Part shown: piece after piece, positions 33-61,985 of the stretch
How positions within the stretch are numbered: the first letter of the stretch is position 1
Layout of the letters: every line of letters starts with the position of its first letter
DNA from: a phage
Length of the DNA: 64,000 bases
Sequence record: PZ452606.1
Direction: 5' to 3' (one strand)
Position numbers and translations under genes: made by a program
The notes under the pieces: model-generated
Seen by the model: only the letters and a program-made list of their open reading frames with translations
What the model was told of the DNA's origin: nothing
Databases searched by the model: none

Positions 33-2012
33 ATGACTTTATTATCTCCGGGCATTGAGCTCAAAGAAACTACGGTTCAAAGCACCGTGGTTAATAACTC
101 TACTGGTACAGCAGCTTTGGCCGGTAAATTCCAGTGGGGTCCTGCTTTTCAGATTAAACAGGTTACAAATGAAGTAGATTTAGTTAATACTTTTGGTCAA
201 CCAACAGCTGAAACTGCTGACTATTTTATGTCTGCGATGAATTTCTTACAGTACGGAAATGACTTACGAGTAGTTCGTGCTGTTGATAGAGATACCGCTA
301 AAAACTCATCTCCGATTGCTGGTAATATTGAATACACAATTTCTACCCCAGGTAGTAACTATGCAGTTGGAGATAAAATCACGGTCAAATATGTTTCAGA
401 TGATATTGAAACTGAAGGTAAAATTACTGAAGTAGACGCAGATGGAAAAATCAAGAAAATTAATATTCCTACTGCAAAAATTATCGCTAAAGCGAAAGAA
501 GTCGGTGAATATCCAACACTAGGTTCTAACTGGACTGCGGAAATTTCTTCATCTTCCTCTGGTTTAGCTGCAGTAATAACTCTTGGAAAAATTATTACTG
601 ATTCTGGTATTTTATTAGCTGAAATTGAAAATGCTGAAGCTGCTATGACAGCGGTTGACTTTCAAGCAAATCTCGAAAAATACGGAATTCCAGGAGTAGT
701 AGCTCTTTATCCAGGCGAATTAGGCGATAAAATTGAAATTGAAATCGTATCTAAAGCTGACTATGCAAAAGGAGCTTCTGCATTACTCCCAATTTATCCA
801 GGTGGTGGTACTCGTGCATCTACTGCTAAAGCAGTGTTTGGATATGGACCACAAACTGATTCACAGTACGCTATTATAGTTCGTCGTAATGATGCTATTG
901 TTCAAAGCGTTGTTCTTTCAACTAAGCGTGGTGAAAAAGATATTTACGATAGTAACATCTATATCGATGACTTTTTCGCAAAAGGTGGTTCAGAATATAT
1001 TTTTGCAACTGCACAAAACTGGCCAGAAGGCTTCTCTGGAATTTTAACTCTGTCTGGTGGATTATCATCAAATGCTGAAGTAACAGCAGGAGATTTGATG
1101 GAAGCTTGGGACTTCTTTGCTGACCGCGAATCTGTTGACGTTCAACTGTTTATTGCGGGTTCTTGTGCCGGTGAATCTTTAGAAACAGCATCTACTGTCC
1201 AAAAACACGTCGTTTCAATTGGGGATGCTCGTCAAGATTGCTTAGTATTGTGCTCACCACCACGTGAAACTGTAGTTGGAATTCCTGTAACTCGTGCTGT
1301 TGATAACTTAGTCAATTGGAGAACTGCAGCAGGTTCATACACTGATAATAACTTTAATATCAGTTCAACCTATGCAGCAATCGATGGCAACTACAAATAT
1401 CAGTATGACAAATATAATGATGTGAATCGTTGGGTTCCATTAGCAGCTGATATTGCTGGTTTATGCGCAAGAACTGATAACGTATCTCAGACTTGGATGT
1501 CTCCAGCTGGTTATAATCGTGGCCAGATTCTTAACGTTATTAAACTTGCTATTGAAACTCGCCAGGCTCAGCGCGACCGTTTATACCAAGAAGCTATCAA
1601 CCCGGTAACTGGTACAGGCGGTGATGGTTACGTATTGTATGGTGATAAAACAGCTACTTCTGTTCCTTCTCCATTTGATCGTATTAACGTTCGTCGTCTG
1701 TTTAATATGTTGAAAACGAATATCGGACGTAGTTCAAAATATCGTTTGTTCGAATTAAACAATGCGTTTACTCGTTCATCATTCCGCACAGAAACTGCCC
1801 AGTACTTACAGGGAATTAAAGCTCTCGGTGGAATTTATGAATATCGTGTAGTTTGCGATACAACAAATAACACTCCGTCAGTAATTGATAGAAATGAGTT
1901 TGTTGCAACATTCTACATCCAACCTGCGCGCAGTATAAATTATATTACTTTGAATTTCGTAGCAACTGCTACCGGTGCAGATTTCGATGAGTTAACTGGT
2001 CTTGCAGGTTAA
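33..2012 (+). CDS. 18: tail sheath protein gp18
   Basis: 659-aa ORF; length and N-terminus (MTLLSPGIELKETT...) match T4 gp18 as I recall it; AGAGG RBS upstream; followed by genes 19-24 in canonical order. Confidence 0.93.
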   Translation: MTLLSPGIELKETTVQSTVVNNSTGTAALAGKFQWGPAFQIKQVTNEVDLVNTFGQPTAETADYFMSAMNFLQYGNDLRVVRAVDRDTAKNSSPIAGNIEYTISTPGSNYAVGDKITVKYVSDDIETEGKITEVDADGKIKKINIPTAKIIAKAKEVGEYPTLGSNWTAEISSSSSGLAAVITLGKIITDSGILLAEIENAEAAMTAVDFQANLEKYGIPGVVALYPGELGDKIEIEIVSKADYAKGASALLPIYPGGGTRASTAKAVFGYGPQTDSQYAIIVRRNDAIVQSVVLSTKRGEKDIYDSNIYIDDFFAKGGSEYIFATAQNWPEGFSGILTLSGGLSSNAEVTAGDLMEAWDFFADRESVDVQLFIAGSCAGESLETASTVQKHVVSIGDARQDCLVLCSPPRETVVGIPVTRAVDNLVNWRTAAGSYTDNNFNISSTYAAIDGNYKYQYDKYNDVNRWVPLAADIAGLCARTDNVSQTWMSPAGYNRGQILNVIKLAIETRQAQRDRLYQEAINPVTGTGGDGYVLYGDKTATSVPSPFDRINVRRLFNMLKTNIGRSSKYRLFELNNAFTRSSFRTETAQYLQGIKALGGIYEYRVVCDTTNNTPSVIDRNEFVATFYIQPARSINYITLNFVATATGADFDELTGLAG

Positions 2013-2028
2013 TACGATGCATTCTAAA

Positions 2029-2046
2029 GGCCTGTTTCGGCAGGCC
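2029..2046 (+). terminator. stem-loop after gene 18 (possible attenuator / stability element)
   Basis: GGCCTG-loop-CAGGCC; no U-run, so probably not a full terminator. Confidence 0.3.
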
Positions 2047-2047
2047 A

Positions 2048-2055
2048 TATAAATA
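2048..2055 (+). promoter_or_regulatory. T4-type late promoter (TATAAATA) upstream of gene 19, copy 1
   Basis: Exact TATAAATA octamer in the 18-19 intergenic region. Confidence 0.6.
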
Positions 2056-2106
2056 CACTATATCCTTAATTCTTTAATTCTATATGCCCTAGGTTAAACA
2101 TAGGGA

Positions 2107-2114
2107 TATAAATA
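2107..2114 (+). promoter_or_regulatory. T4-type late promoter upstream of gene 19, copy 2
   Basis: Exact TATAAATA 15 nt upstream of the gene 19 ATG. Confidence 0.65.
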
Positions 2115-2128
2115 CTACAGAGGCTAAT

Positions 2129-2620
2129 ATGTTTGTAGATGATGTAACACGAGCGTTTGAATCTGGTGATTTTGCTCGACCTAACTTATTCCAAGTAGAA
2201 ATTTCTTATCTTGGACAAAATTTTACGTTCCAATGTAAAGCTACTGCTCTACCAGCTGGTATTGTAGAAAAAATTCCAGTCGGATTTATGAACCGTAAAA
2301 TTAACGTAGCAGGCGATCGTACATTCGATGACTGGACTGTTACAGTAATGAACGATGAAGCTCATGATGCTCGCCAGAAGTTCGTTGATTGGCAAAGCAT
2401 TGCTGCAGGACAAGGAAACGAAATTACTGGTGGAAAACCTGCAGAGTATAAAAAGAGCGCTATCGTTCGTCAATATGCTCGTGACGCTAAAACAGTAACA
2501 AAAGAAATTGAAATTAAAGGTCTGTGGCCTACTAACGTGGGTGAACTTCAATTAGATTGGGATTCAAACAATGAAATCCAAACCTTTGAAGTAACTCTTG
2601 CTCTCGATTATTGGGAATAA
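2129..2620 (+). CDS. 19: tail tube protein gp19
   Basis: 163-aa ORF directly after gene 18; size and position match T4 gp19; two TATAAATA late-promoter motifs upstream. Confidence 0.92.
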   Translation: MFVDDVTRAFESGDFARPNLFQVEISYLGQNFTFQCKATALPAGIVEKIPVGFMNRKINVAGDRTFDDWTVTVMNDEAHDARQKFVDWQSIAAGQGNEITGGKPAEYKKSAIVRQYARDAKTVTKEIEIKGLWPTNVGELQLDWDSNNEIQTFEVTLALDYWE

Positions 2621-2625
2621 AATGA

Positions 2626-2643
2626 ATGGGGAGAAATCCCCAT
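2626..2643 (+). terminator. stem-loop with GAAA tetraloop after gene 19
   Basis: ATGGGGA-GAAA-TCCCCAT, 7-bp stem; no U-run. Confidence 0.35.
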
Positions 2644-2652
2644 CCTGCTTAA

Positions 2653-4277
<1,625 letters not shown>

Positions 4278-4278
<1 letters not shown>

Positions 4279-4517
4279 TGGAAGGTTTAATTGAAGCTAT
4301 TAAATCAAACGACCTCGTAGCCGCTCGTAAATTATTTGCTGAAGCCATGGCTGCAAGAACGACTGATTTAATCAAAGAAGAAAAAATCGCTATCGCTCGT
4401 AATTTCTTAATCGAAGGTGAAGAACCTGAAGACGAGGATGAAGATGATGACGAAGATAGTGATGATAAAGACGACAAAAAAGACAAAGACTCTGACGAAG
4501 ACGAGGATGATGAATAA
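4278..4517 (+). CDS. 67: prohead core protein gp67 (acidic C-terminal tract)
   Basis: 79-aa ORF, stop/start overlap with gene 20 (TAATG); poly-Asp/Glu tail; position between 20 and 68 as in T4. Confidence 0.85.
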
Positions 4518-4942
4518 TGATTCTAATCCCTGAAACTCATGAATTAGTTCTCGAGAATGTCGAAGCACTTATTCCTGAAGCACAGGGTCGCTTTGACGAG
4601 TTGTCTTCTGCTTTAAATAAAGACGATATAAATAAAATTATCGAGAATATGCTTGATGATGAAACTGATTTAGCGGTTGCATTAGCTTCTATTAATGAAA
4701 ATATGCCGTTAAATGAATTTATCGTTAAACATGTTTCTGCCCGTGGTGAAATTACTCGCACTAAAGATCGCAAAACCCGCGAACGTAATGCATTTCAAAC
4801 TACCGGGTTGTCTAAAGCAAAACGTAGACAAATTGCTCGTAAAGCTACCAAAACGAAGATTGCCAATCCAGCAGGTCAATCTCGTGCTCAGCGTAAGCGT
4901 AAAAAAGCTCTTAAACGCCGTAAAGCATTAGGATTAAGCTAA
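4517..4942 (+). CDS. 68: prohead core protein gp68
   Basis: 141-aa ORF, basic C-terminus, ATGA overlap with gene 67; position matches T4 gene 68. Confidence 0.85.
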
Positions 4943-5580
4943 TGAATGAACCCCAATTGCTAATTGAAACTTGGGGTCAACCTGGCGAAATTATTGATGG
5001 CGTGCCAATGCTTGAATCCCATGATGGGAAAGACTTAGGTTTAAAACCTGGTTTATACATCGAAGGAATATTCATGCAAGCAGAAGTCGTCAATAGAAAT
5101 AAACGTCTTTATCCAAAACGTATATTAGAAAAAGCGGTAAAAGACTATATTAATGAGCAAGTTTTAACTAAACAAGCTCTCGGAGAATTAAATCATCCTC
5201 CACGCGCTAATGTTGACCCGATGCAAGCCGCTATCATTATAGAAGATATGTGGTGGAAAGGAAATGACGTATACGGACGAGCTCGTGTTATTGAAGGTGA
5301 CCATGGTCCTGGAGATAAATTAGCAGCTAATATTCGTGCCGGATGGATTCCAGGAGTTTCTTCTCGTGGATTAGGTTCATTGACTGACACAAATAAAGGT
5401 TATCGTATCGTAAACGAAGGATTCAAATTAACTGTAGGTGTTGATGCAGTATGGGGTCCAAGTGCTCCAGATGCATGGGTAACTCCTAAGGAAATTACAG
5501 AATCACAGACGGCGGAAGCCGATACAAGTGCCGATGACGCCTATATGGCTCTCGCAGAGGCCATGAAAAAAGCGTTATAA
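4942..5580 (+). CDS. 21: prohead core protease gp21
   Basis: 212-aa ORF, sequence [17 protein letters not shown]... and length match T4 gp21. Confidence 0.93.
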   Translation: MNEPQLLIETWGQPGEIIDGVPMLESHDGKDLGLKPGLYIEGIFMQAEVVNRNKRLYPKRILEKAVKDYINEQVLTKQALGELNHPPRANVDPMQAAIIIEDMWWKGNDVYGRARVIEGDHGPGDKLAANIRAGWIPGVSSRGLGSLTDTNKGYRIVNEGFKLTVGVDAVWGPSAPDAWVTPKEITESQTAEADTSADDAYMALAEAMKKAL

Positions 5581-5583
5581 ATA
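5576..5583 (+). promoter_or_regulatory. T4-type late promoter upstream of gene 22
   Basis: Exact TATAAATA overlapping the gene 21 stop codon. Confidence 0.6.
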
Positions 5584-5610
5584 TTATTATCTAAACAACA
5601 GGACTACAAA

Positions 5611-6420
5611 ATGCTTAAAGAACAACTGATTGCCGAAGCGCAGAAAATTGATGCTTCCGTTGCTCTTGATAGTATTTTCGAATCAGTTAATATTTCTCCG
5701 GAAGCAAAAGAAACTTTCGGCACTGTATTCGAAGCTACCGTCAAGCAGCACGCCGTTAAATTAGCTGAATCTCATATCGCTAAAATTGCTGAAAAAGCAG
5801 AAGAAGAAGTAGAAAAAAATAAAGAAGAAGCAGAAGAAAAAGCTGAGAAGAAAATCGCTGAGCAAGCTTCTAAATTCCTTGACCATCTTGCAAAAGAATG
5901 GCTCACTGAAAATAAATTAGCAGTAGATAAAGGCATCAAAGCCGAACTGTTTGAATCCATGCTTGGTGGATTGAAAGAGCTCTTCGTTGAACACAACGTT
6001 GTTGTTCCAGAAGAATCAGTTGATGTTGTAGCTGAAATGGAAGAAGAACTGCAAGAACACAAAGAAGAATCAGCTCGTCTGTTCGAAGAACTCAATAAGC
6101 GTGACGCATATATCAATTATGTGCAGCGTGAAGTGGCATTGAGCGAAAGTACTAAAGATCTGACTGAGTCTCAAAAAGAAAAAGTCTCTGCTCTGGTCGA
6201 AGGTATTGATTATTCAGATGCATTCTCAAGCAAATTGAGTGCCATCGTAGAAATGGTGAAGAAATCTAATAAAGATGAAAGCACTATTACTGAGAGTATA
6301 AATACTCCTGATACTGAAGCAGCCGGACTGAATTTCGTCACTGAAGCTGTAGAAGATAAATCTGCACAAGGTGCAGAAGATATTGTAAGTGTATATGCGA
6401 AAGTCGCATCTCGTTTCTAA
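5611..6420 (+). CDS. 22: prohead core scaffold protein gp22
   Basis: 269-aa ORF, Glu/Lys-rich coiled-coil composition, position between 21 and 23. Confidence 0.9.
   Translation: MLKEQLIAEAQKIDASVALDSIFESVNISPEAKETFGTVFEATVKQHAVKLAESHIAKIAEKAEEEVEKNKEEAEEKAEKKIAEQASKFLDHLAKEWLTENKLAVDKGIKAELFESMLGGLKELFVEHNVVVPEESVDVVAEMEEELQEHKEESARLFEELNKRDAYINYVQREVALSESTKDLTESQKEKVSALVEGIDYSDAFSSKLSAIVEMVKKSNKDESTITESINTPDTEAAGLNFVTEAVEDKSAQGAEDIVSVYAKVASRF
6297..6304 (+). promoter_or_regulatory. T4-type late promoter for gene 23 (inside 3' end of gene 22)
   Basis: Exact TATAAATA ~135 nt upstream of the gene 23 ATG. Confidence 0.6.
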
Positions 6421-6438
6421 TTTTAAAGGTTAACACAA

Positions 6439-8004
6439 ATGACTATCAAAACTAAAGCTGAACTTTTGAACAAATGGAAGCCATTACTGGAAGGTGAAGG
6501 TTTACCGGAAATTGCTAATAGCAAACAAGCGATTATCGCTAAAATCTTTGAAAACCAGGAAAAAGATTTCCAGACAGCTCCGGAATATAAAGACGAAAAA
6601 ATTGCTCAGGCATTCGGTTCTTTCTTAACAGAAGCTGAAATCGGTGGTGACCACGGTTACAATGCTACCAACATCGCTGCAGGTCAGACTTCTGGCGCAG
6701 TAACTCAGATTGGCCCAGCTGTTATGGGTATGGTACGTCGTGCTATTCCTAACCTGATTGCTTTCGATATTTGCGGTGTTCAGCCGATGAACAGCCCGAC
6801 TGGTCAGGTATTCGCACTTCGTGCGGTATATGGTAAAGACCCAATCGCTTCCGGCGCTAAAGAAGCATTCCACCCAATGTATGGTCCAGATGCAATGTTC
6901 TCTGGTCAGGGTGCTGCTAAGAAATTCCCAGCTCTGGCTGCTAGTACTGAAACTGTTGTAGGTGATATCTATACTCACTTCTTCCAGGAAACCGGTACTG
7001 TATATCTGCAAGCTTCAGCTGTTGTGACAATTGATTCTAGTGCAAATGATGCAGCTAAATTAGATGCTGAAATTAAGAAACAAATGGAAGCAGGTGTACT
7101 GGTAGAAATCGCTGAAGGTATGGCTACTTCTATCGCTGAACTCCAGGAAGGTTTTAACGGTTCTACCGATAACCCATGGAATGAAATGGGCTTCCGTATC
7201 GATAAGCAAGTTATCGAAGCTAAATCTCGTCAGCTGAAAGCTGCTTACTCTATTGAATTAGCACAAGACCTCCGTGCTGTTCACGGTATGGATGCTGATG
7301 CTGAACTGTCTGGTATTCTGGCTACCGAAATTATGCTGGAAATCAACCGCGAAGTTGTTGATTGGATTAACTACTCAGCGCAGGTTGGTAAATCTGGTAT
7401 GACCCTGACTCCGGGTTCTAAAGCTGGTGTATTTGACTTCCAGGACCCAATCGATATTCGTGGTGCTCGCTGGGCGGGTGAATCCTTTAAAGCTCTGTTG
7501 TTCCAGATTGACAAAGAAGCAGTTGAAATTGCTCGTCAGACCGGTCGTGGTGAAGGTAACTTCATTATCGCTTCCCGTAACGTAGTTAACGTTCTGGCTT
7601 CAGTTGATACTGGCATTTCTTATGCTGCACAAGGTCTGGCTACCGGCTTTAACACTGATACTACCAAGTCAGTATTTGCTGGTGTTCTGGGTGGTAAATA
7701 CCGCGTATATATCGACCAGTATGCTAAACAGGATTATTTCACTGTAGGTTATAAAGGTCCGAACGAAATGGATGCTGGTATTTACTATGCTCCATATGTA
7801 GCTCTGACTCCGCTGCGTGGTTCCGATCCGAAGAACTTCCAACCGGTAATGGGGTTCAAAACTCGTTACGGTATCGGTATCAACCCATTTGCAGAATCCG
7901 CTGCTCAGGCTCCGGCTTCTCGCATCCAGAGCGGTATGCCTTCTATTCTGAATAGCCTTGGTAAAAACGCTTACTTCCGCCGTGTATATGTTAAAGGTAT
8001 CTAA
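6439..8004 (+). CDS. 23: major capsid protein gp23
   Basis: 521-aa ORF; N-terminus MTIKTKAELLNKWKPLLEGEGLPEIANSKQ... recognised as T4 gp23; strong terminator hairpin downstream. Confidence 0.97.
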   Translation: MTIKTKAELLNKWKPLLEGEGLPEIANSKQAIIAKIFENQEKDFQTAPEYKDEKIAQAFGSFLTEAEIGGDHGYNATNIAAGQTSGAVTQIGPAVMGMVRRAIPNLIAFDICGVQPMNSPTGQVFALRAVYGKDPIASGAKEAFHPMYGPDAMFSGQGAAKKFPALAASTETVVGDIYTHFFQETGTVYLQASAVVTIDSSANDAAKLDAEIKKQMEAGVLVEIAEGMATSIAELQEGFNGSTDNPWNEMGFRIDKQVIEAKSRQLKAAYSIELAQDLRAVHGMDADAELSGILATEIMLEINREVVDWINYSAQVGKSGMTLTPGSKAGVFDFQDPIDIRGARWAGESFKALLFQIDKEAVEIARQTGRGEGNFIIASRNVVNVLASVDTGISYAAQGLATGFNTDTTKSVFAGVLGGKYRVYIDQYAKQDYFTVGYKGPNEMDAGIYYAPYVALTPLRGSDPKNFQPVMGFKTRYGIGINPFAESAAQAPASRIQSGMPSILNSLGKNAYFRRVYVKGI

Positions 8005-22895: not shown

Positions 22896-22917
22896 ATGGG
22901 GACCGAAAGGTCCCCAT
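22896..22917. terminator. bidirectional terminator between gene 54 (+) and the alt region (-)
   Basis: ATGGGGACC-GAAA-GGTCCCCAT, 9-bp stem, followed by ATTTTTATTT. Confidence 0.75.
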
Positions 22918-22921
22918 ATTT

Positions 22922-23212
22922 TTATTTACGGAATGAAATAAAAGCAGCAACTGAAGCAACTAAACTGTCTTCAATATAAACTTCAATTTTTACCGGAGCT
23001 TCTGACTCAAATTTACCTGTTACTACACCTTGGAAAATGCTTTCAGTCTGCTGTGGCTTTGAAAAATTTTCAGAAGGAAAAATTCCGAACTTTTTATCTG
23101 TTCCAAAAATTTTGATAAATTCATCATAAACTGCTTCATTAAAAGCGTTATCAGCAGGAATAACGCCTTCAACTACAAGTTCTTGACCTAAAAAGCGTAA
23201 AGAAGATTTCAT
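22922..23212 (-). CDS. hypothetical protein (alt.-3 position)
   Basis: 96-aa ORF; preceded on the - strand by a GTTTAC...TAnnnT promoter-like element and GAGG RBS. Confidence 0.6.
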   Translation of the reverse strand: MKSSLRFLGQELVVEGVIPADNAFNEAVYDEFIKIFGTDKKFGIFPSENFSKPQQTESIFQGVVTGKFESEAPVKIEVYIEDSLVASVAAFISFRK

Positions 23213-23220
23213 TTTGTGTT

Positions 23221-23273
23221 CCTCATGTTATGTCAGTAAGATTACTGTAACACAACACGAGGGACTTGTAAAC
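23221..23273 (-). repeat. 53-bp intergenic repeat, copy A (second copy at 38546-38598, 52/53 identical)
   Basis: CCTCATGTTATGTCAGTAAGA[T/C]TACTGTAACACAACACGAGGGACTTGTAAAC present at both loci immediately 5' of minus-strand genes. Confidence 0.9.
23238..23273 (-). promoter_or_regulatory. T4 early-type promoter candidate (GTTTAC -35-like, TGnTACAGT -10-like) within 53-bp repeat, copy A
   Basis: Minus strand GTTTAC-17 nt-TTACAGT followed by GAGG RBS and the alt.-3-position ORF. Confidence 0.45.
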
Positions 23274-25330
23274 TACATCTTGAACTTTTTAGACATTCCG
23301 TTGATGCTAACCAAAGAAGCCAAGATTTGAGAAACTTCGTTTTCCTCTTCTTTTGATTCTTCTACAAGGAATTGATTAAACCCAGCCATTGGACGAACTT
23401 CACCAGTTTCCATTAGATGATCGCCATCATATACCGATTCTTCTAATTGTTCAGAAGGAGGAACGATTGTGCCTTCGATTAGATACTTGTTATAAGCAGT
23501 TTCTTTCATCATGTACGTGCTTACTTTATTAATCTTCAACAAAATTCCACGCGGTAGAATAACTTCAGCTTCTGATGGAAATCCTGATAAATGACCTGGA
23601 ACGATAACTTTGATTCGTTCAGCCCCTTTAATTACCATACCTACGCTAGTTTCAGCATCTTCATTAGCATATGTAGAATGACTACCCATATGCATCAAAT
23701 CTTCTGCATCAACGGAACCTTCTCCTTCACCAGAAAATACTGCGCCGGAATCATCTAGAGCCATATAGTTTTTACCATGCTCACCGAAGATATTTGGTTT
23801 AAGCGATGTGGATACGAAGTTCTTGAAATAGAACATTTTATTTTCAATATTATGACGTAAAGTTTTAAAGGTAACTTCTTGTCCGCGATAAAGCGTAGTT
23901 CCTGGAGGAAGAACTGAACCTTTAGCAAATGCAGAATCCAACGTCTCGATGTGCTTAATAGCTCGTTCCATATATTCTTCACGGGTAGAATCTGGTTTAC
24001 CCAAGAGGAACGAGTTCATTTCAACATATGAATCTGCACAATAATCTTCAATTACATCAGACTCAGCCTGAGTTAATCCTTTTGGAGTTACTTCGGTGCT
24101 TGCGTATTCATATGCCTGAGCAGCAGATTCATTAATCAATTTATAAATGCTATTCATGACAAATTGAATAATAGCTACTTTTTCGTCTGGCGTGGCTTTA
24201 GAACCTTTAACTAAATCATTGATAATTTTCTTAATAACATCAAAGCTATTAGAAATATTAATGTCAGCTAGATCGCTCAAAATTTTATCGGTTTTATAAT
24301 CAAAAAATTCTTTATTCTTTAAATATTCTTGAGAACCTTGATGTGTTATATCGCTCTGCAGTCTGATAGACGGATCACGTAAACGTGCATGGGCCAATGC
24401 AATATGATTTCGGAAGCTTTCTAGTTCATAATCGTTAGATTTAAAACGAGAAGCACTTCTCATACCACCGATAGCTCCTTTGCCGAAGTTGGAACCAATC
24501 TGAATAACGCCAGAGTTCATTGGTCCTTCTGCTTTATATACCGGAACTTTAGATTCAAACTCTTGATATTTCTTAGCGGCGAAGCTATCGCCCTGGAGTG
24601 AGGCATCGACAGTAGAATATTGAGCTTGCGCTGCTAATCGACGACTAATTTTAGTTTTCTGAATAACAGCTTGATCAGTGCGCTTATCATTTTCTAAAGC
24701 AATAGAAGCAGCAACAGCGACAGCTTTAGGAACAGCATTACCTGTTTTAACGTCTACATAAACATCACCAACCTTTGATTCAACTTTTGTGAATAACTCA
24801 GTTGAAATAGGAGGTACACCTGGAATGTCTTCTAAATTGGCATTTTTACGGTAAACCATAATATATGCGTACTTTTTATCATAGTCCCAGATTTCCTTTA
24901 AAAGAACATATCGACCTGCTCCTTTAGTACGTACTAAACGGTCAGCAATAACTTGCATTTGACGAGCTGCGCCATTTGTTTTACTCTTTAGTACGCGGAA
25001 TAGGCATGCGTCGATTTTATACTGCTTCATTGTTTGAAGAGCAGTATCAAAAACAGCATTAATGACGCCAATTGGATTTCCACCCAAGTTTCTAAGCTTA
25101 ACCAGCGATAATTTCTCGTTGACACCTATCATTACGATATGCATCATTTTATCGCCTGGCTTAACGTTTTTATTCGTATCACCACCAGAGGTGTATGTAC
25201 AAAATCTAAATCCAGGAAGCACGCTTTCTTCGCCGGCTTGAATAGCAAAAATTTGTGGTATTTTATGCTTAGGATTTAAGTTAACAACCGGCGCCGAAGC
25301 GCCGTCAAATAATTCTGTAATAAGTTCCAT
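23273..25330 (-). CDS. Alt-like ADP-ribosyltransferase paralogue (685 aa)
   Basis: N-terminal third near-identical in pattern to the adjacent 698-aa ORF; C-terminal ART R/S/E triad candidates: YRGQ, FVSTSL, PSEAEVILPRG. Confidence 0.8.
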   Translation of the reverse strand: MELITELFDGASAPVVNLNPKHKIPQIFAIQAGEESVLPGFRFCTYTSGGDTNKNVKPGDKMMHIVMIGVNEKLSLVKLRNLGGNPIGVINAVFDTALQTMKQYKIDACLFRVLKSKTNGAARQMQVIADRLVRTKGAGRYVLLKEIWDYDKKYAYIMVYRKNANLEDIPGVPPISTELFTKVESKVGDVYVDVKTGNAVPKAVAVAASIALENDKRTDQAVIQKTKISRRLAAQAQYSTVDASLQGDSFAAKKYQEFESKVPVYKAEGPMNSGVIQIGSNFGKGAIGGMRSASRFKSNDYELESFRNHIALAHARLRDPSIRLQSDITHQGSQEYLKNKEFFDYKTDKILSDLADINISNSFDVIKKIINDLVKGSKATPDEKVAIIQFVMNSIYKLINESAAQAYEYASTEVTPKGLTQAESDVIEDYCADSYVEMNSFLLGKPDSTREEYMERAIKHIETLDSAFAKGSVLPPGTTLYRGQEVTFKTLRHNIENKMFYFKNFVSTSLKPNIFGEHGKNYMALDDSGAVFSGEGEGSVDAEDLMHMGSHSTYANEDAETSVGMVIKGAERIKVIVPGHLSGFPSEAEVILPRGILLKINKVSTYMMKETAYNKYLIEGTIVPPSEQLEESVYDGDHLMETGEVRPMAGFNQFLVEESKEEENEVSQILASLVSINGMSKKFKM

Positions 25331-25333
25331 GAT

Positions 25334-27430
25334 TTATCCTTGAACGAACTTGTAAGGCATGTTTGTAATATCTATGCAAGACGCAATAATTCCAAGAGAT
25401 GATTCTACTTTCTGTTTAACATTTGATGAAACAAATGATGCAAAGTCAACTCTGTCTTCTATTTCAATATCACCTGTCATTGCAACTACTTCGCCAGTTT
25501 CCATTAAACGGTCACCGTCATAAATTACCGATTCGGTGAGTTCTTCGGTGGTCATAACTTCAGCTTGAATGAGTTTTGTATTATTAGACGTGGTTCCGTC
25601 ATTATTAGAAGCATCAGTTATTTTATTAACTTTGACCATCAATCCGCGCGGTAGAATAACTTCGGCTTCTGTTGCTATTCCGAGACTTCCTGGATATACA
25701 ACATTAACTTTATGAGCTCCATCAATTGCCCATCCTATTTGAACTTTAACGTATTCAGGATTTTCTTTATACGCTCTTATTTCGTTTGGATTAATAGTTA
25801 TTCCTTCTTCATTTTTATCAACTGTTAATTCGTTACGAGCTTCTGGTTCTAAAAGACCAATACCAGCATGTGTAATTCCAAAACGTCCAAAAATGATAGG
25901 AGTTAAAGAAGTAGATACAAAATTTCTGAAATAGAACACTTTATTTTTAACTAACGCTTCATATATAGGAGCAGTCATACTTTGAGCACGATAAACTGTA
26001 ATGCCTTCTGGTATACGGTCACCATTTTCAAAAGCTGAATCTAAGTTATTTATAGCAGATTCAATTTCTTTTTCGCTCATTACATCGTATCGTTCTGGAT
26101 TGTAACGACCTAAAAGAAGATTATTAATGTCTGTATATCCTGAACCGCAATATTCTCTAATGCCACGCTTTTGTGATGGAGTATATTTAGAACCATCGCG
26201 GGCAATAGTAATATCAATCATTGGACCGGCACCAATTCCAGAAAAACTGTAAATCATTCGTTTGAGGAATTTAGTTTTTGCTGCGTTCCAGGAATTTTTA
26301 GTTATTTCTTCCCAGACTTCATCTGGTTGCCCTTTACGAGTTTTATTATGTTTATCAAGCCAATTATCTTTATATTCTTCAAAGAATTTATTAACAGCTG
26401 CTGCGTATTTCTCTAAACATTTTATTGAAGTAGTTGGTTCATTTTTGATTGCGTTAAAAATTACATCTTTAATTTTTTCGGAAACTTCATCAACCTCACT
26501 TTTTGAAAAGAATTTATAGTCATAGTGAAGTTCATTCGCAGTTCCTTCGGCAATAATTTTTGCTGCCTTAGTTTTAGAAGCTAATGAATTAATTCCAAGC
26601 TTCATTTCTTCTGCTTCGGGAATTAAAGGAGCGGTAGCAGGTTTATTGAAATTAGCTGCGGTAGATTCATACTTCTGGAATAATTCACTTTCAAATCTAG
26701 AAGATTCCAATGATTGACTTTGCGCAATTGCTCTACGGGAAATTTTAACTTTAACGATTACAGCTTGGTCAGAACGTTTATCATTTTCCTGCGCAATAGA
26801 TGCTGCAATTGCCTCATTTTTAGTTACTTGGGCTCCAGTATCTTTATTGATATAAACATCACCGACTTTCGATTCAACTTTAGTAAAGAGCTCGGTACTA
26901 ATTTCTGGAACTCCCGGAATGTCTTCTAGTGATACATTTTTGCGATGTATAAGAATATATGCATACTTTTTATCATAATCCCAGAGTTCCTTAAGAAGGA
27001 CGTATCTGCCACCTGAACGACTACGGATAAGTCTATCAGCAATAACTTGAATTTGTCGAGCTTGACCAGCGGTTTTAGACTTAAGAATACGAAGCATACA
27101 AGCATCAATTTTATACTGACGCATTGTTTGCATTGCAACAGTAAAAACTGAATTGATATAATTAATTGGGCTTGGACCAAGACCTTTTAATTTAGCAATT
27201 GAACCTTTAGCAGTTAATGTAAAAGGAACAATATGCATCATTTTATCGCCCATCTTTAAATCGCGATTAGTATCACCTCCAGATGTATAGGTACATAAAC
27301 GAAAGCCTGGCTGTTCAATTGCATCATCAACGTGAACTGAAAAAATTTGCGGTATTTTCTTCTTTGGATTTAAGTTTGTAATCGGAAGAGTAGTATCTTC
27401 GTCAAATAATTCTGTAATAAGTTCCATCAT
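25334..27430 (-). CDS. alt: Alt-like ADP-ribosyltransferase (698 aa; probable alt)
   Basis: Position next to gene 30; ART motifs YRAQ, FVSTSL, ATEAEVILPRG; N-terminus MMELITELFDE; minus-strand TATAAATA late promoter upstream; which paralogue corresponds to T4 alt is uncertain. Confidence 0.8.
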   Translation of the reverse strand: MMELITELFDEDTTLPITNLNPKKKIPQIFSVHVDDAIEQPGFRLCTYTSGGDTNRDLKMGDKMMHIVPFTLTAKGSIAKLKGLGPSPINYINSVFTVAMQTMRQYKIDACMLRILKSKTAGQARQIQVIADRLIRSRSGGRYVLLKELWDYDKKYAYILIHRKNVSLEDIPGVPEISTELFTKVESKVGDVYINKDTGAQVTKNEAIAASIAQENDKRSDQAVIVKVKISRRAIAQSQSLESSRFESELFQKYESTAANFNKPATAPLIPEAEEMKLGINSLASKTKAAKIIAEGTANELHYDYKFFSKSEVDEVSEKIKDVIFNAIKNEPTTSIKCLEKYAAAVNKFFEEYKDNWLDKHNKTRKGQPDEVWEEITKNSWNAAKTKFLKRMIYSFSGIGAGPMIDITIARDGSKYTPSQKRGIREYCGSGYTDINNLLLGRYNPERYDVMSEKEIESAINNLDSAFENGDRIPEGITVYRAQSMTAPIYEALVKNKVFYFRNFVSTSLTPIIFGRFGITHAGIGLLEPEARNELTVDKNEEGITINPNEIRAYKENPEYVKVQIGWAIDGAHKVNVVYPGSLGIATEAEVILPRGLMVKVNKITDASNNDGTTSNNTKLIQAEVMTTEELTESVIYDGDRLMETGEVVAMTGDIEIEDRVDFASFVSSNVKQKVESSLGIIASCIDITNMPYKFVQG

Positions 27431-27450: not shown

Positions 27451-27458
27451 TATTTATA
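27451..27458 (-). promoter_or_regulatory. T4-type late promoter (minus strand) upstream of alt
   Basis: Reverse-complement TATAAATA between a terminator hairpin and the Alt start; consistent with Alt being a packaged head protein. Confidence 0.6.
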
Positions 27459-27463
27459 AAATT

Positions 27464-27481
27464 AAAGGCCCGAAGGCCTTT
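27464..27481 (-). terminator. stem-loop after the gene 30 cluster, before the alt late promoter
   Basis: AAAGGCC-CGAA-GGCCTTT. Confidence 0.55.
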
Positions 27482-27668
27482 AGTAATCTAGTGGTAAGAG
27501 AGTACGATATATTTCAAACTTTGGTCCTTTTTCATAGGCATCAAATGTTTCTGTAAATTTATTATAAGCGTATGCATCTACAAATTCGAGAATGACTTGT
27601 GATACAGAAGTAGAAACATCTCCACCTTCTTTTTGAGCAATGACAATTGTTTCTAAGTAAGCTTTCAT
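27480..27668 (-). CDS. hypothetical small protein
   Basis: 62-aa ORF overlapping the 3' end of gene 30 by 4 nt. Confidence 0.5.
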   Translation of the reverse strand: MKAYLETIVIAQKEGGDVSTSVSQVILEFVDAYAYNKFTETFDAYEKGPKFEIYRTLLPLDY

Positions 27669-57488: not shown

Positions 57489-60400
57489 ATGGCTACTTTA
57501 AAACAAATACAATTTAAAAGAAGCAAAACCGCAGGTGCACGTCCTGCTGCTTCAGTATTAGCCGAAGGTGAATTGGCTATAAACTTAAAAGATAGAACAA
57601 TTTTTACTAAAGATGATTCAGGAAATATCATTGATCTAGGTATTGCTAAAGGCGGTCAAATTGATGGAAATGTAACTATTGATGGAACTTTACGCGTCAA
57701 TGGACCAATAAACAACTTTGGAAATTTTTCTACAAGTGGTACTATTACGGCAAGTAATATTGTTTCTGCTACAGTATTCAGATCAACATCCGGTTCATTT
57801 TATACAAGAGCAATAAATGATACTGCAAATGCCCATCTTTGGTTTGAAAATACAAATGGCTCAGAACGTGGCGTTTTATATTCAAAACCGCAGTCTGAAA
57901 ATGAAGGCGTAATTACAATGCGTGTTCGTCAAGGAACCGCTGCGGGAGCTCAAAATTCAGAATTTCATTTCATTTCTACTGATGGCGGTATCTTCCAGGC
58001 ACGTAAGTTAACTGCTTTAACTTCTATTAGTACACCAACTATTAGTGTTAATTTAATTAATCATGATTCTAAATCATTTGGACAATACGATTCACAATCT
58101 TTGGTTAACTATGTTTATCCTGGAACCGGTGAAACAAATGGTGTAAACTATCTTCGTAAAGTTCGAGCTAAATCAGGTGGAACTATTTACCATGAAATTT
58201 GTACAGCTCAGACTGGGCTAGCTGATGAAGTTTCTTGGTGGACTGGTAATATACCGTTATTTAAACTATACGGTATTCGTAACGACGGTAGAATGATTAT
58301 CCGCAATAGCTTGGCCATTGGTACTGTGACTGAAGGATACCCGTCAAGCGATTATGGAAATACCGGGGTAATGGGAGATAGGTATTTAGCTCTTGGCGAT
58401 AATGCTTCTGGACTTAAATGGGTTCGTACTGGCGTTATTGACTTAATGGCTAACGGTATTTCTGCGGCGACTATTATTAATAATGGTATTAATAGTACTA
58501 AAAAATTGATGGTTGGTTATAGTCGAGATTCTGGTTCTACTTGGGATTTCCCAAATAACAACCAAGCAATGTTTACTGCGCGTACCGATGTTGATGGTAA
58601 TAATAACGGTGATGGTCAAACTCATATCGGTTATAGCAGTAATTCTAAAATGTATCACTATTTCCGTGGTACAGGTCGTATGTCCGTTAGTATGGGCGAT
58701 GGACTTCTTGTTGAGCCTGGCATTTTAGATATTAAAACTGGTTCAAATTCATTAAATTTGCGTGCTGATGGTACTGTTGCATCTACTCAAGAAGTTAAGC
58801 TTAATAATGGGTTATTCTTTAATAGTAGTTCTTCTAACGCCGGTCTTAAATTTGGCGCTTCTTCTTCTATAAATGGAACTAAGACAATACAATGGAACGC
58901 AGGCACCCGCCCGGGTCAGAACAAAAGCTATGTGACCATGAAAGCATGGGGCAATGCATTTGAGGATAACACTAATAAAAACAGAGAAACTGTATTTGAA
59001 TTAGGCGATGGACAGGGTTGGCATTTTTATTCACAACGCGTTGCTCCTGTAGCAGGTTCTACTGTCGGTTCTGTTGAATTTGCGATGGCCGGTAGTTTAT
59101 TAACTTCTGGTTCTATTACAACAAGATCTTCCCTGAATGCTGATAATGGATTGTCTGTAAATGGACAAGCTAAATTTGGTGGAACGGCAGATGCATTAAG
59201 AATTTGGAATGCTGAATACGGTGCTATTTTCCGTCGCTCAGAAAGTAATCTTTATATTATACCGACTCCTAAAGATGCTGGAGAATCGGGCGGTATAAGT
59301 AATCTTAGACCATTGATAATAGAACTGAACACTGGCACAGTTAAAATGTCGCATGATGTTCATTTAGGAGATTCTGGATCTGGTACAGGACTTTTACAAG
59401 TAAGTAATAGTCTTAAAACTATTAAAATGATATGTCCAGTAACTATTAATGAACGCAATGCAGCGCTTACCCTGGATTCTCCTTCATCTTCTTCTGCTAA
59501 TTATTTACAGGGTTCTAAAGCTGGAACTAGATCATGGTACGTTGGTCTTGGCGGCGCTGGAAATGATTTATCTCTTTATAGCCAATCTTATGGACATGGT
59601 CTTGTTATAAGCGATAATTTCGTGTCAATCAGTAAACCTCTTAAAGTTGGAAATGCCCAACTAGGAACTGATGGTAATATTACTAGCGGTTCAGGAAACT
59701 TTGCCAACTTGAACACCACACTAAACCGTAAAGTTAATTCTGGATTTATTACTTATGGAGCAACCGCTGGATGGTATAAGTTTGCAACAGTAACAATGCC
59801 ACAATCCACTTCGACGGTCTTCTTTAAAATAGTTGGAGGTTCTGGATTTAATAGCGGATTATTCACACAATGTAATATTGCTGAAATTGTTTTACGTACT
59901 AGTAATGAAAGACCTGCTGACTTAAATGCTGCATTATACACAAGAACAATTGGAGCTGCATTTAAAGATATTGCAGTTAATAACGTCTCTGGAGATACAT
60001 ATGACATTTATGTTTCTGCTGGAACATATTGTAATCAATTAGCTTGTGAGTGGTCATGTACCGAAAATGCTACTGTTAGTGTTATTGGTATTAACTCATC
60101 TACACAATCACCTGTAGATGCTCTTCCAGATACAGCAGTTAATGGTCAAGTTGCTAATGTTCTTAATAACTTGGTTGATCGCGGTAAAGTTAAGCGTTAT
60201 GAAGCCGATTCTGAAATAGCTATTAATAGCCAAACCGGTATTCGTATCAGAAGCAATGCCGATAAAACTGGTTCTGTGGCTACAATGTTACGAAATGATG
60301 GTGGTAGTTTTTATATTCTGTTTACAGATAAAAATGCCACTGATGGCGCAGCAACTGTTAACGGCGATTGGAATAGTAAACGTCCTTTCGCAATTAACTT

Positions 60401-61169
60401 AACAACCGGCGAAGTGATGATGAATAACGGCATAGCTGTTCGCAGCGCTGCTTTATTCTATAATAGCATAAACGTCAAAGATAATGGTTCTATTAACTTT
60501 GATAAGTCCGGCGCTAACCCGAGAAACATGCGTATATTCCATGCAGGTGATGGCACTCGTGGTAATCGCATTGAAATTGCTGATGAAACAAACTATATTG
60601 CTTACTTCCAAAAATTACCTGGTGGTCAAAATCAGGTTTCATTCAATAGTGCTACACTTTCTGGATTAACACAGTGTAATCAATTTGGTGTTAACACAAC
60701 AAACGCACTTGGTGGAAACAGTATAACATTTGGTGATACTGATACTGGTATTAAGCAAAATGGCGATGGATTATTAGACATATATGCGAACAACGTGCAA
60801 GTGTTCCGTTTCCAAAATGGTGATTTGTACTCATATAAAAATATAAATGCTCCAAACGTTTATATTCGTTCTGATATTCGTTTAAAATCTAACTTCAAAC
60901 CTATCGAAAATGCACTTGATAAAGTTGAAAAACTCAATGGTGTCATTTATGATAAAGCTGAATACATCGGTGGAGAGGCAATTGAAACTGAAGCGGGTAT
61001 TGTAGCTCAAACGTTACAAGACGTTTTACCAGAAGCCGTCCGTGAAACAGAAGACAGCAAGGGTAATAAAATACTCACTGTTTCTTCTCAAGCCCAGATT
61101 GCTCTTCTGGTTGAAGCTGTGAAAACACTTTCTGCTCGTGTAAAAGAACTTGAATCTAAACTTTTGTAA
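57489..61169 (+). CDS. 37: long tail fibre distal subunit gp37 (T2/T6-type, with C-terminal intramolecular chaperone domain)
   Basis: 1226-aa ORF, longer than T4 gp37 as I recall; C-terminal ~100 aa (from SDIRLKSNF...GIVAQTLQDVLPEAV) resemble S74-peptidase-type self-cleaving chaperone domains. Confidence 0.9.
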   Translation: MATLKQIQFKRSKTAGARPAASVLAEGELAINLKDRTIFTKDDSGNIIDLGIAKGGQIDGNVTIDGTLRVNGPINNFGNFSTSGTITASNIVSATVFRSTSGSFYTRAINDTANAHLWFENTNGSERGVLYSKPQSENEGVITMRVRQGTAAGAQNSEFHFISTDGGIFQARKLTALTSISTPTISVNLINHDSKSFGQYDSQSLVNYVYPGTGETNGVNYLRKVRAKSGGTIYHEICTAQTGLADEVSWWTGNIPLFKLYGIRNDGRMIIRNSLAIGTVTEGYPSSDYGNTGVMGDRYLALGDNASGLKWVRTGVIDLMANGISAATIINNGINSTKKLMVGYSRDSGSTWDFPNNNQAMFTARTDVDGNNNGDGQTHIGYSSNSKMYHYFRGTGRMSVSMGDGLLVEPGILDIKTGSNSLNLRADGTVASTQEVKLNNGLFFNSSSSNAGLKFGASSSINGTKTIQWNAGTRPGQNKSYVTMKAWGNAFEDNTNKNRETVFELGDGQGWHFYSQRVAPVAGSTVGSVEFAMAGSLLTSGSITTRSSLNADNGLSVNGQAKFGGTADALRIWNAEYGAIFRRSESNLYIIPTPKDAGESGGISNLRPLIIELNTGTVKMSHDVHLGDSGSGTGLLQVSNSLKTIKMICPVTINERNAALTLDSPSSSSANYLQGSKAGTRSWYVGLGGAGNDLSLYSQSYGHGLVISDNFVSISKPLKVGNAQLGTDGNITSGSGNFANLNTTLNRKVNSGFITYGATAGWYKFATVTMPQSTSTVFFKIVGGSGFNSGLFTQCNIAEIVLRTSNERPADLNAALYTRTIGAAFKDIAVNNVSGDTYDIYVSAGTYCNQLACEWSCTENATVSVIGINSSTQSPVDALPDTAVNGQVANVLNNLVDRGKVKRYEADSEIAINSQTGIRIRSNADKTGSVATMLRNDGGSFYILFTDKNATDGAATVNGDWNSKRPFAINLTTGEVMMNNGIAVRSAALFYNSINVKDNGSINFDKSGANPRNMRIFHAGDGTRGNRIEIADETNYIAYFQKLPGGQNQVSFNSATLSGLTQCNQFGVNTTNALGGNSITFGDTDTGIKQNGDGLLDIYANNVQVFRFQNGDLYSYKNINAPNVYIRSDIRLKSNFKPIENALDKVEKLNGVIYDKAEYIGGEAIETEAGIVAQTLQDVLPEAVRETEDSKGNKILTVSSQAQIALLVEAVKTLSARVKELESKLL

Positions 61170-61170
61170 A

Positions 61171-61188
61171 AGAGGGCTTCGGCCCTCT
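61171..61188 (+). terminator. stem-loop between genes 37 and 38 (UUCG loop)
   Basis: AGAGGGC-TTCG-GCCCTCT, then AAGGATTTTTAATG. Confidence 0.5.
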
Positions 61189-61199
61189 AAGGATTTTTA

Positions 61200-61985
61200 A
61201 TGGCAATTGTAGGTGTTCCTGGCTGGATTGGTGAATCTGCCGTGAATGAAACTGGACAACGCTGGATGGATGCTGCGATGAGAGCAGTTCGTGTTTCAGT
61301 TCCTGGTTGGATGAGTTCAATGGCTGGGCAATCTAAAGAAGTATATTATAGCATTGGTGCTAGCAATTCTTACAATAAAGACACACTAATAAATTGGATA
61401 AAAGCCCAAGGAAGTACTCCTGTTGTTATTACAATTACAGGCAATATCGTTTCTTCATCGACAGGTCAACCATGCTTAGATTTTCCTAGCTCATTAACTA
61501 ATGCATACGTGACACTTAATATCAATTCAGGCGTGCATGTTTGGGGGCGCGGCGGGAATGGCGGAAATAACTCTGCTGGCGGAGCAGGAGGAACTGCAAT
61601 AAATAACGGAATTGGAACTAGATTACGTATTAACAACAATGGTGTTATCGCAGGCGGCGGTGGCGGCGGTGGCGGCGGGTATTATTCTCCTTTTTCACAA
61701 ATGAGATTAACCTTTGGCGGTGGTGGTGGGCGTCCGTTTGGTGCTGCCGGTGGGTCTGCTAATATGGAACAGGGTGCTACTGCTGGTACTATTTCTGCGC
61801 CAGGTAAAGGGTCTGTCAACGGTATCTATAATGGCGGGAATGGTGGTGATGCCGGAGCCGCAGGAGGTAAATGTAATATTCGCGGTCAAGGATCAGAATA
61901 TAACGGCGGTGCTGCGGGTAAAGCTGTTACTGGTAATGCTCCAACTTGGACTAAAGTTGGTACAATATACGGTTCAAGAGTATAA
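61200..61985 (+). CDS. 38: gp38 receptor-recognising adhesin (T2/T6-type, glycine-rich motifs)
   Basis: 261-aa ORF; conserved N-terminal region then Gly-rich motifs (GRGGNGGNNSAGGAGG, GGGGGGGGG, FGGGGGRPFGAAGG, NGGNGGDAGAAGG) separated by short variable segments; differs from the T4-type gp38 chaperone. Confidence 0.85.
   Translation: MAIVGVPGWIGESAVNETGQRWMDAAMRAVRVSVPGWMSSMAGQSKEVYYSIGASNSYNKDTLINWIKAQGSTPVVITITGNIVSSSTGQPCLDFPSSLTNAYVTLNINSGVHVWGRGGNGGNNSAGGAGGTAINNGIGTRLRINNNGVIAGGGGGGGGGYYSPFSQMRLTFGGGGGRPFGAAGGSANMEQGATAGTISAPGKGSVNGIYNGGNGGDAGAAGGKCNIRGQGSEYNGGAAGKAVTGNAPTWTKVGTIYGSRV
61653..61679 (+). repeat. (GGCGGCGGT)x3 codon microsatellite encoding Gly9 in gp38
   Basis: ggcggcggt ggcggcggt ggcggcggg read directly in-frame in gene 38. 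Confidence 0.9.

Follow-up and report, generated by a model that had tools for sequence, protein, structure and literature searches.

Does the alt locus of T4-like phages supply one ADP-ribosyltransferase (ART) to the infected cell, or two? The question is raised by a 64,000-nucleotide (nt) stretch of phage DNA (record PZ452606.1, here called the window), in which two adjacent open reading frames (ORFs) on the minus strand both resemble the T4 enzyme Alt. A sequence-only reading of this DNA had described them as a tandem pair of Alt-like ARTs of 685 and 698 amino acids (aa), separated by 3 bp, near-collinear over the N-terminal ~230 aa, strongly different in their central regions and both catalytically intact. 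It had also pointed to an I-T-E tripeptide in the shared N-terminus that fits the cleavage rule of the prohead protease gp21, and had left two questions standing, namely which copy corresponds to T4 alt and whether the second is intact in T4 itself. The description proved accurate throughout, apart from a likely length of 697 aa for the longer protein, and both questions are answered by the comparisons reported below: the upstream copy is alt, and the second copy is not intact in T4.

T4 Alt is a head-packaged and injected NAD:arginine ADP-ribosyltransferase that modifies Arg265 of the RNA polymerase alpha subunit, a reaction known for T4 Alt only (PMC2988021), as well as other host proteins. 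The two ORFs of the window are alt and an ancient full-length paralogue of it, the latter most likely encoding a second head-packaged, injected and arginine-specific ART that acts on a different substrate. The TATAAATA promoter upstream of alt would drive late transcription of both genes as a single unit, and both proteins would enter the scaffolding core of the prohead by way of their shared N-terminal part. The protease gp21 would trim each of them after ITE-6 and again after the L-x-E tripeptide that stands just before SV(I)YDGD, leaving ~69 kDa of the paralogue and ~70 kDa of Alt. Injected with the DNA, the two would at once modify host proteins as arginine-specific mono-ADP-ribosyltransferases, with the paralogue most likely modifying a set different from that of Alt, because the two are unlike in their helical centre and in the turn of the ART domain that recognizes the substrate. 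T4 lost the paralogue by a 1.7-kb deletion.

Identity and organization of the two genes

The 4.2-kb segment that carries both genes is 97-98% identical at the DNA level to the genomes of the Tequatrovirus phages Kha5h, Sf22 and RB32, each of which is annotated with the same two coding sequences; the window is a Tequatrovirus of the T2/T6/RB32 kind. The gene order, gene 54 - alt.-3 - paralogue - alt - alt.1 - gene 30, matches RB32, T2 and T6, and the neighbours, which include genes 48 and 54, alt.-3 (DUF5498), alt.1 and the DNA ligase gene 30, are those of the T4 alt locus. Paralogue and alt thus share the location that marks T4 Alt-type ARTs, from gene 30/alt.1 to alt.-3/gene 54, together with a late promoter.

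The upstream ORF is alt, because it adjoins alt.1 and gene 30 and residues 1-240 of its product match T4 Alt at 100% identity. The ORF opens with ATGATGG in the window and in T4 alike, and since T4 alt is annotated from the second ATG, the likely start is the ATG at 27427, which gives a protein of 697 aa beginning MELITE. Its stop codon TAA (25334-25336) is followed by ATC (25331-25333), the 3-bp gap, and then by the ATG of the paralogue (25328-25330). Window Alt is 99% identical to the Alt proteins of T2 and T6.

BLASTP aligns Alt and the paralogue over their full length with 41% identity (expect value, E, 1e-161), which is distributed very unevenly. In paralogue numbering, the N-terminal part (residues 1-235) is 68% identical, the centre (236-415) 16%, the ART domain (416-631) 34% and the C-terminal tail (632-685) 43%. 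The first nine residues are the same in both proteins, and the first 31 nt of the two genes, which agree at 30 positions, are the longest run of near-identical DNA. The family phrog_802, 'Alt-like RNA polymerase ADP-ribosyltransferase', is matched by both proteins from one end to the other (paralogue residues 1-685, E 6e-255; Alt residues 1-696, E 1e-272). AlphaFold2 models of the paralogue (685 aa; predicted local distance difference test, pLDDT, 76; predicted template modelling score, pTM, 0.70) and of window Alt (697 aa; pLDDT 75.5, pTM 0.57) exhibit the same build, with an alpha/beta N-terminal domain at ~11-215, an all-helical centre at ~220-415, the ART domain and a disordered tail. NCBIfam holds no model for either protein. 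The N-terminal domain has no model in the Pfam copy used; PF26846 is precomputed for it in the protein database. When the paralogue's central 180 aa were compared with 1.84 billion representative proteins, one weak match only was returned, to an Alt-like protein (E 8.6e-4), and the region is fast-evolving and confined to the Alt family.

A tandem arrangement by itself could also arise if a single alt gene had been duplicated by mis-assembly, an artefact that the sequence-only reading had named as a way in which it might fail. We give this next to no credence and rejected it, as the copies are only 41% identical in protein, their longest near-identical DNA is 31 nt, and T2, T6, RB32 and Kha5h have the pair too, as do hundreds of genomes sequenced independently of one another.

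A complete gene in T2, T6 and RB32 and its remnants in T4

Alt.-2 of RB32 (YP_803136) and the T2 and T6 proteins AYD82791 and AXN58232 are products of the same gene as the paralogue: they are 98-99% identical to it, have the same length and are encoded at the same position between alt and alt.-3, with no difference of substance. In all, proteins that share 95% identity or more with the intact paralogue are encoded in ~400 phage records, under names that range from 'hypothetical protein' and 'alt.-2' to 'Alt-like RNA polymerase ADP-ribosyltransferase' and 'Alt-like ADP-ribosyltransferase'. As a sequence feature the pair is not new and is widely annotated in GenBank/RefSeq.

In T4, two stubs remain in place of the second copy. 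Alt.-1 (NP_049810, 61 aa) and alt.-2 (NP_049809, 67 aa) align to residues 1-56 and 62-117 of the paralogue, and the families to which they belong (phrog_23015 and phrog_15247) match the paralogue with E 2e-40 and 1e-37, compared with 1e-21 and 2e-19 for Alt. The stubs derive from the same gene as the paralogue but have no ART domain left. DNA alignment accounts for them by a 1-nt deletion that shifts the frame and a 1,699-bp deletion between CTAAA(G/A)AGT direct repeats. In T4 a single copy of the repeat remains, with the final codons and the stop codon of the intact gene after it, and the alt.-2 stub ends with these codons (junction at ~5105 in the coordinates of the T4 segment compared). The same type of junction is found in at least 91 phage records besides T4.

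T4 is the derived state, with the deletion having taken place in T4, because a complete gene under selection exists in other genera. GenBank notes on the locus in the T4, RB32 and T6 records speak of a 'duplication of the first part of alt' and of an 'apparent insertion in alt.-2'. The alignment indicates that this polarity is reversed, T4 alt.-1 and alt.-2 being remnants of a deletion and RB32 alt.-2 a gene without insertion, and the comparison corrects both database notes, the one that treats the T4 stubs as a partial duplication and the one that gives RB32 alt.-2 an insertion.

Between the window and RB32, the ratio of nonsynonymous to synonymous substitution rates (dN/dS) is 0.058 for the paralogue (dS 0.14) and 0.025 for alt (dS 0.10), as expected of strong purifying selection on both genes. 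A pseudogene reading of the paralogue was rejected on this ratio and on the full-length copies in T2 and T6. The second copy might still be a redundant duplicate that, expressed or not, adds nothing beyond Alt and is heading to loss, which is how T4 could have come to delete it. The 1.7-kb deletion in T4 and the other records speaks for such redundancy, and Alt itself is non-essential in T4 (PMC9958956). We nevertheless find it quite improbable, given a dN/dS this low at a dS of 0.14, catalytic and processing residues that are all intact, the ~400 records with a full-length copy, and a diverged Dhakavirus counterpart, which shows that the gene has been kept since before the two genera split (see below). 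Nor do a centre 16% and an ART domain 34% identical to those of Alt look redundant.

Catalytic core and fold

The paralogue carries the motifs YRGQ (R482), FVSTSL (S507, S509) and SEAEVILPRG (E587, E589), to which YRAQ (R480), FVSTSL (S505, S507) and TEAEVILPRG (E587, E589) correspond in Alt (697-aa numbering). An alignment of the two with T4 Alt, ModA and ModB shows no variation at the Arg, the first Ser or either Glu, and in a set of 24 diverse members of the Alt family the Arg, the two Ser and the two Glu do not vary. Neither copy is without the catalytic Arg or Glu, in agreement with what the sequence-only reading had deduced from the motifs.

Pfam family PF03496 matches the paralogue with 72.3 bits (E 4e-20) and Alt with 128.9 bits (E 2e-37), at a cut-off of 23.4. 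A sequence search of the PDB with the 685-aa protein gave no match at E <= 1, and fold comparison of the models was used instead. It assigns a C3-like/Vis-like fold to the ART domains, and the closest solved structure to the paralogue is Vis. The nearest known systems thus include C3-like and binary-toxin ARTs of bacteria (Vis, C3bot, Certhrax, iota Ia, CDTa and Vip2); the enzymatic components of binary toxins (Vip2, iota Ia, CDTa) are characterized by two ART folds in tandem, of which the N-terminal one is inactive and works as an adaptor. With its catalytic motifs and fold intact, the paralogue looks catalytically competent.

Protein-arginine ARTs (C3/iota/Vip2 group) bear the signature of E-x-E combined with Arg and S-T-S. 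The presence of E-x-E, not Q-x-E, points, by established knowledge of the family, to arginine as the probable acceptor. The turn before E-x-E reads F-P-S in the paralogue (with Y as the aromatic residue in ORF194 of the Dhakavirus MX01) and I-A-T or P-S-N in the Alt alleles. Its aromatic residue, F584, presumably matches the substrate-recognition turn of C3 and iota toxin. This turn is a possible lead towards a different substrate recognition by the paralogue, not a test of it.

E577A in Alt and E165A in ModA each abolish ADP-ribosylation (PMC11404850). ModA E165 is the second Glu of E-x-E, and the same Glu is E576 in T4 Alt (682-aa numbering); the published E577 would be this residue if counted from the first ATG, an offset that we infer.

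T4 Alt (NP_049811) and the paralogue have in common the three-part build, the R / S-T-S / E-x-E residues, the gp21 sites, the late promoter and the locus. Their overall identity is 42%, but only 11% of the centre and 35% of the ART domain are the same. ModA and ModB share the R-S-E catalytic core and can be aligned with the paralogue over its ART domain, at 17-19% identity to the C-terminal part that contains it. They are, however, early proteins of ~200 aa that are not packaged and have neither the N-terminal and central parts nor propeptides. The window proteins, at 685 and 697 aa and with an N-terminal domain and propeptides, are not of this single-domain type.

An active and packaged paralogue could also differ from Alt in its chemistry or class of substrate, for example by linking NAD-capped RNA to its targets in the manner of ModB, or by acting on a small molecule or a nucleic acid. 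We regard this as unlikely, since the signature described above is that of protein-arginine ARTs and no sequence feature points specifically to RNA or DNA. What keeps it under consideration is that ModB, a member of the same R-S-E clade, RNAylates host proteins (PMC10468400), that Vis has also been crystallised with the small molecule agmatine (entry 4xzk), and that the centre of the paralogue has no detectable relatives that hint at a partner.

Processing sites and packaging

T4 Alt is a component of the prohead core, present in ~40 copies and trimmed by gp21 (PMC9958956). Mass spectrometry of T4 virions places the gp21 cuts in Alt at ITE-6 and LTE-619, leaving a protein of 68.2 kDa (PMC5694885), which equals the mass computed for T4 Alt residues 7-619. 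The I-T-E tripeptide that the sequence-only reading had matched to the gp21 rule is thus the mapped cleavage site, and it is conserved in both window proteins. The corresponding sites of the paralogue are ITE 4-6 and LEE 629-631, the latter directly before SVYDGD. E6 and E631 (paralogue numbering) are invariant in 24 sequences, and three MX01 copies and two Aeromonas phage copies have L-x-E at both places too. As motifs, the sites that characterize T4 Alt-type ARTs are present in both window proteins, and cleavage itself is predicted. In the model of the paralogue, the low-confidence or disordered ends (1-10 and 631-685) start at the two sites; those of the window Alt model span 1-11 and 652-697. 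After trimming, the paralogue is predicted to have a mass of 69.2 kDa and window Alt one of 70.2 kDa.

The C-terminal propeptides of all Alt-like copies (in the window 23276-23437 and 25337-25531, minus strand) carry an invariant Y-D-G-D-x-L-M-E-T-G-E motif, which holds a further gp21-type L-M-E site and may serve in targeting, tethering or auto-inhibition.

The N-terminal domain is presumably the module that incorporates these proteins into the head core. Conceivably the paralogue is made late, left out of the head and active inside the producing cell instead of being injected. Such a fate is very improbable in our view. The first nine residues are those of Alt, encoded by DNA identical at 30 of 31 nt, and the N-terminal domain as a whole is 68% identical to that of Alt. 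The two gp21 sites are invariant, as is the YDGDxLMETGE motif of the propeptide. Furthermore, the N-terminal domain tracks the phage genome and not the effector type, as expected for a part that has to fit the head core.

Relatives and domain-wise divergence

Arrays of two or three Alt-like genes, placed head to tail in the same ligase-gene 54 locus as the window pair, are found in other genera. Dhakavirus MX01 has three in tandem (ORF196/195/194; 864-7124 of the segment compared) and Aeromonas phage L9-6 has two (1549-5426), while the Krischvirus MIZ6 has one full Alt-like copy and a short ART of 274 aa (3423-6377). R / S-x-S / E-x-E are intact in all of these copies. Such duplications had been noted in 44RR (ORF187c) and RB49 by Nolan et al. 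2006 (PMC1524935). The MX01, L9-6 and 44RR arrays resemble the window pair in having L-x-E near the N-terminus and differ from it in copy number and effector types.

The paralogue is 46% identical to MX01 ORF194 in the centre and 60% in the ART domain, and ORF194 also adjoins alt.-3. By these similarities, ORF194 is the counterpart of the paralogue and ORF196 that of window alt, which shows that the paralogue has been kept since before the split of Tequatrovirus and Dhakavirus.

The N-terminal domain behaves differently. Within a genome its copies are 68% identical in Tequatrovirus, 67-88% in MX01 and 55% in L9-6, compared with 26-46% between genomes, whereas in domain-wise identity matrices the centre and the ART domain pair across genera by type. 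The pattern would fit an N-terminal carrier adapted to the head core of each phage and joined to old, distinct effector types; it is seen in four genomes, too few to call it established.

The alleles of alt are related in a similarly uneven manner. Window Alt is 72% identical to T4 Alt overall. Beyond the identical residues 1-240 the value is 33% in the centre (14-37% in 30-residue windows), ~67% in the ART domain and 93% over the last 54 residues, so that in its centre and ART domain window alt is, by sequence, a different allele from T4 alt. Relative to T4 alt it is a mosaic (25334-27427, minus strand), with near-identical N- and C-termini and a divergent middle. Compared with MX01 ORF196, window Alt is 95% identical in the ART domain, 66% in the centre and 46% in the N-terminal domain. 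An ART domain at 95% beside an N-terminal domain at 46% suggests that modules have been exchanged between genera.

These relationships may extend to the locus as a whole. The region between the ligase gene and gene 54 may be a variable array of injected effectors, in which a lineage-specific head-incorporation module, made up of the N-terminal domain and the two propeptides removed by gp21, is combined with exchangeable centre/ART 'warheads'. These would belong to no fewer than three old types, and the type of 685 aa would have a host target of its own. We put this forward tentatively, as possible rather than probable. If it were true, this type, found in T2 and T6 and deleted in T4, would strike something in the host that Alt leaves alone, perhaps a protein of defence or stress, and T2 and T6 would differ from T4 in the first seconds of infection.

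Expression of the pair

A T4-type late promoter precedes alt, downstream of the hairpin terminator that ends the alt.1/gene 30 transcript, and T4 alt has the same arrangement upstream. This promoter is the sole motif of its type ahead of either gene. Motif and terminator scans found no TATAAATA, no promoter and no terminator between alt and the paralogue. Alt and the paralogue are most likely co-transcribed late, because the late promoter lies ahead of alt, nothing comparable stands between the genes and the next terminator follows alt.-3.

Within alt, the coding strand has another exact copy of TATAAATA (26047-26054, minus strand), which may be due to chance, as the window has 18 matches with 9.3 expected. 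A scan of the region for sigma-70 promoters found 16 where 17.7 are expected, which is the chance level, and these hits were not used except for one. This sigma-70/T4-early-like match, GTTTACA ... TG-TTACAGT (23244-23272, minus strand), is located between the stop codon of the paralogue and alt.-3, and if it is a real promoter it would give alt.-3 its own, earlier expression.

Assessment and implications

Several observations weigh against an injected second ART with its own target. T4 and the at least 91 other records with the deleted form mean that the paralogue is dispensable under some conditions. The searchable literature yielded no study of its expression, virion proteomics, enzymology or genetics. 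The divergent centre could reflect relaxed constraint on a linker and not a change of target. L/I-x-E tripeptides are frequent, at 7-10 per protein, and the motif alone is no proof of cleavage; the argument from the gp21 sites therefore rests on their positional conservation. Finally, the proposed head-core role of the N-terminal domain is deduced from its pattern of conservation.

A paralogue of a well-known enzyme, already annotated as such, is not surprising in kind. The 'alteration' that host proteins undergo at the moment of infection has, however, been studied almost entirely with T4, which is the exception among its relatives: T2, T6, RB32 and ~400 sequenced relatives have a second, apparently functional and probably injected ART. 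If the target of the paralogue is not RNA polymerase alpha, an unstudied step of host takeover or anti-defence would be at hand, and the paralogue could explain some of the phenotypic differences among T-even phages.

Coordinates of the genes, domains, catalytic codons and signals discussed are collected in Table 1.

Table 1 Features of the alt locus and related genes in the window.
Feature	Position	Strand	Details
Gene 21, prohead protease	4942..5580	+	Peptidase_S77; enzyme expected to trim both Alt-type proteins
Bidirectional hairpin terminator	22896..22917	.	Separates gene 54 from alt.-3; end of the alt transcription unit
alt.-3	22922..23212	-	DUF5498, 96 aa; neighbour downstream of the paralogue (ORF list, Pfam)
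Full-length Alt paralogue	23273..25330	-	685 aa; annotated as 'alt.-2' in RB32 and as 'hypothetical protein' in T2/T6
Paralogue, predicted C-terminal propeptide	23276..23437	-	Residues 632-685; disordered in the model
9-bp direct repeat, 3' copy	23284-23292	-	CTAAAAAGT; 18 nt before the stop codon
Paralogue, C3/Vis-like ART domain	23438..24085	-	Residues 416-631; ends at the gp21-type site LEE 629-631 (23438-23446)
Paralogue, catalytic codons	23885-23887, 23810-23812, 23804-23806, 23570-23572, 23564-23566	-	R482, S507, S509, E587, E589
Paralogue, F584	23579-23581	-	Turn before E-x-E
Paralogue, central region	24086..24625	-	Residues 236-415; divergent, all-helical
Paralogue, N-terminal domain	24626..25312	-	Residues 7-235; shared alpha/beta domain
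9-bp direct repeat, 5' copy	24983-24991	-	CTAAAGAGT; start of the T4-type deletion
Paralogue, predicted N-terminal propeptide	25313..25330	-	MELITE; gp21 cut expected after E6
alt, T2/T6/RB32-type allele	25334..27430	-	698 aa as mechanical ORF, probably 697 aa (ORF list)
Shine-Dalgarno-like AAGGA	25337..25341	-	GTTCAAGGATAAATCATGG; within the last alt codons, 6 nt before the paralogue ATG
alt, gp21-type sites	27410-27418, 25532-25540	-	ITE 4-6, LTE 630-632
alt, catalytic codons	25988-25990, 25913-25915, 25907-25909, 25667-25669, 25661-25663	-	R480, S505, S507, E587, E589
T4-type late promoter	27451..27458	-	TATAAATA; 16 nt before ATG 27427, 19 nt before ATG 27430
Hairpin terminator	27463..27482	-	AAAGGCC-TTCG-GGCCTTT then T-run; ends the alt.1/gene 30 transcript

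Other features of the locus and the window

The genes that flank the pair, alt.1 (Pfam 'Phage_blade', PF24647; 27480-27668, minus strand) and alt.-3, are both small and conserved. The GenBank record of Kha5h lists '315.5 attP-L/attP-R' and 'D-loop' features within its copies of alt and the paralogue (1523-1536 and 2949-2960 of the segment compared), which look like pattern matches made by the annotator. Elsewhere in the window, positions 57489-61985 (plus strand) encode a gp37 of 1,226 aa, whose C-terminus is an S74 intramolecular chaperone domain, and after it a gp38 adhesin of 261 aa. We take these two genes to be a tail-fibre tip of the T2/T6 type, which is consistent with the T2/T6-type alt locus.

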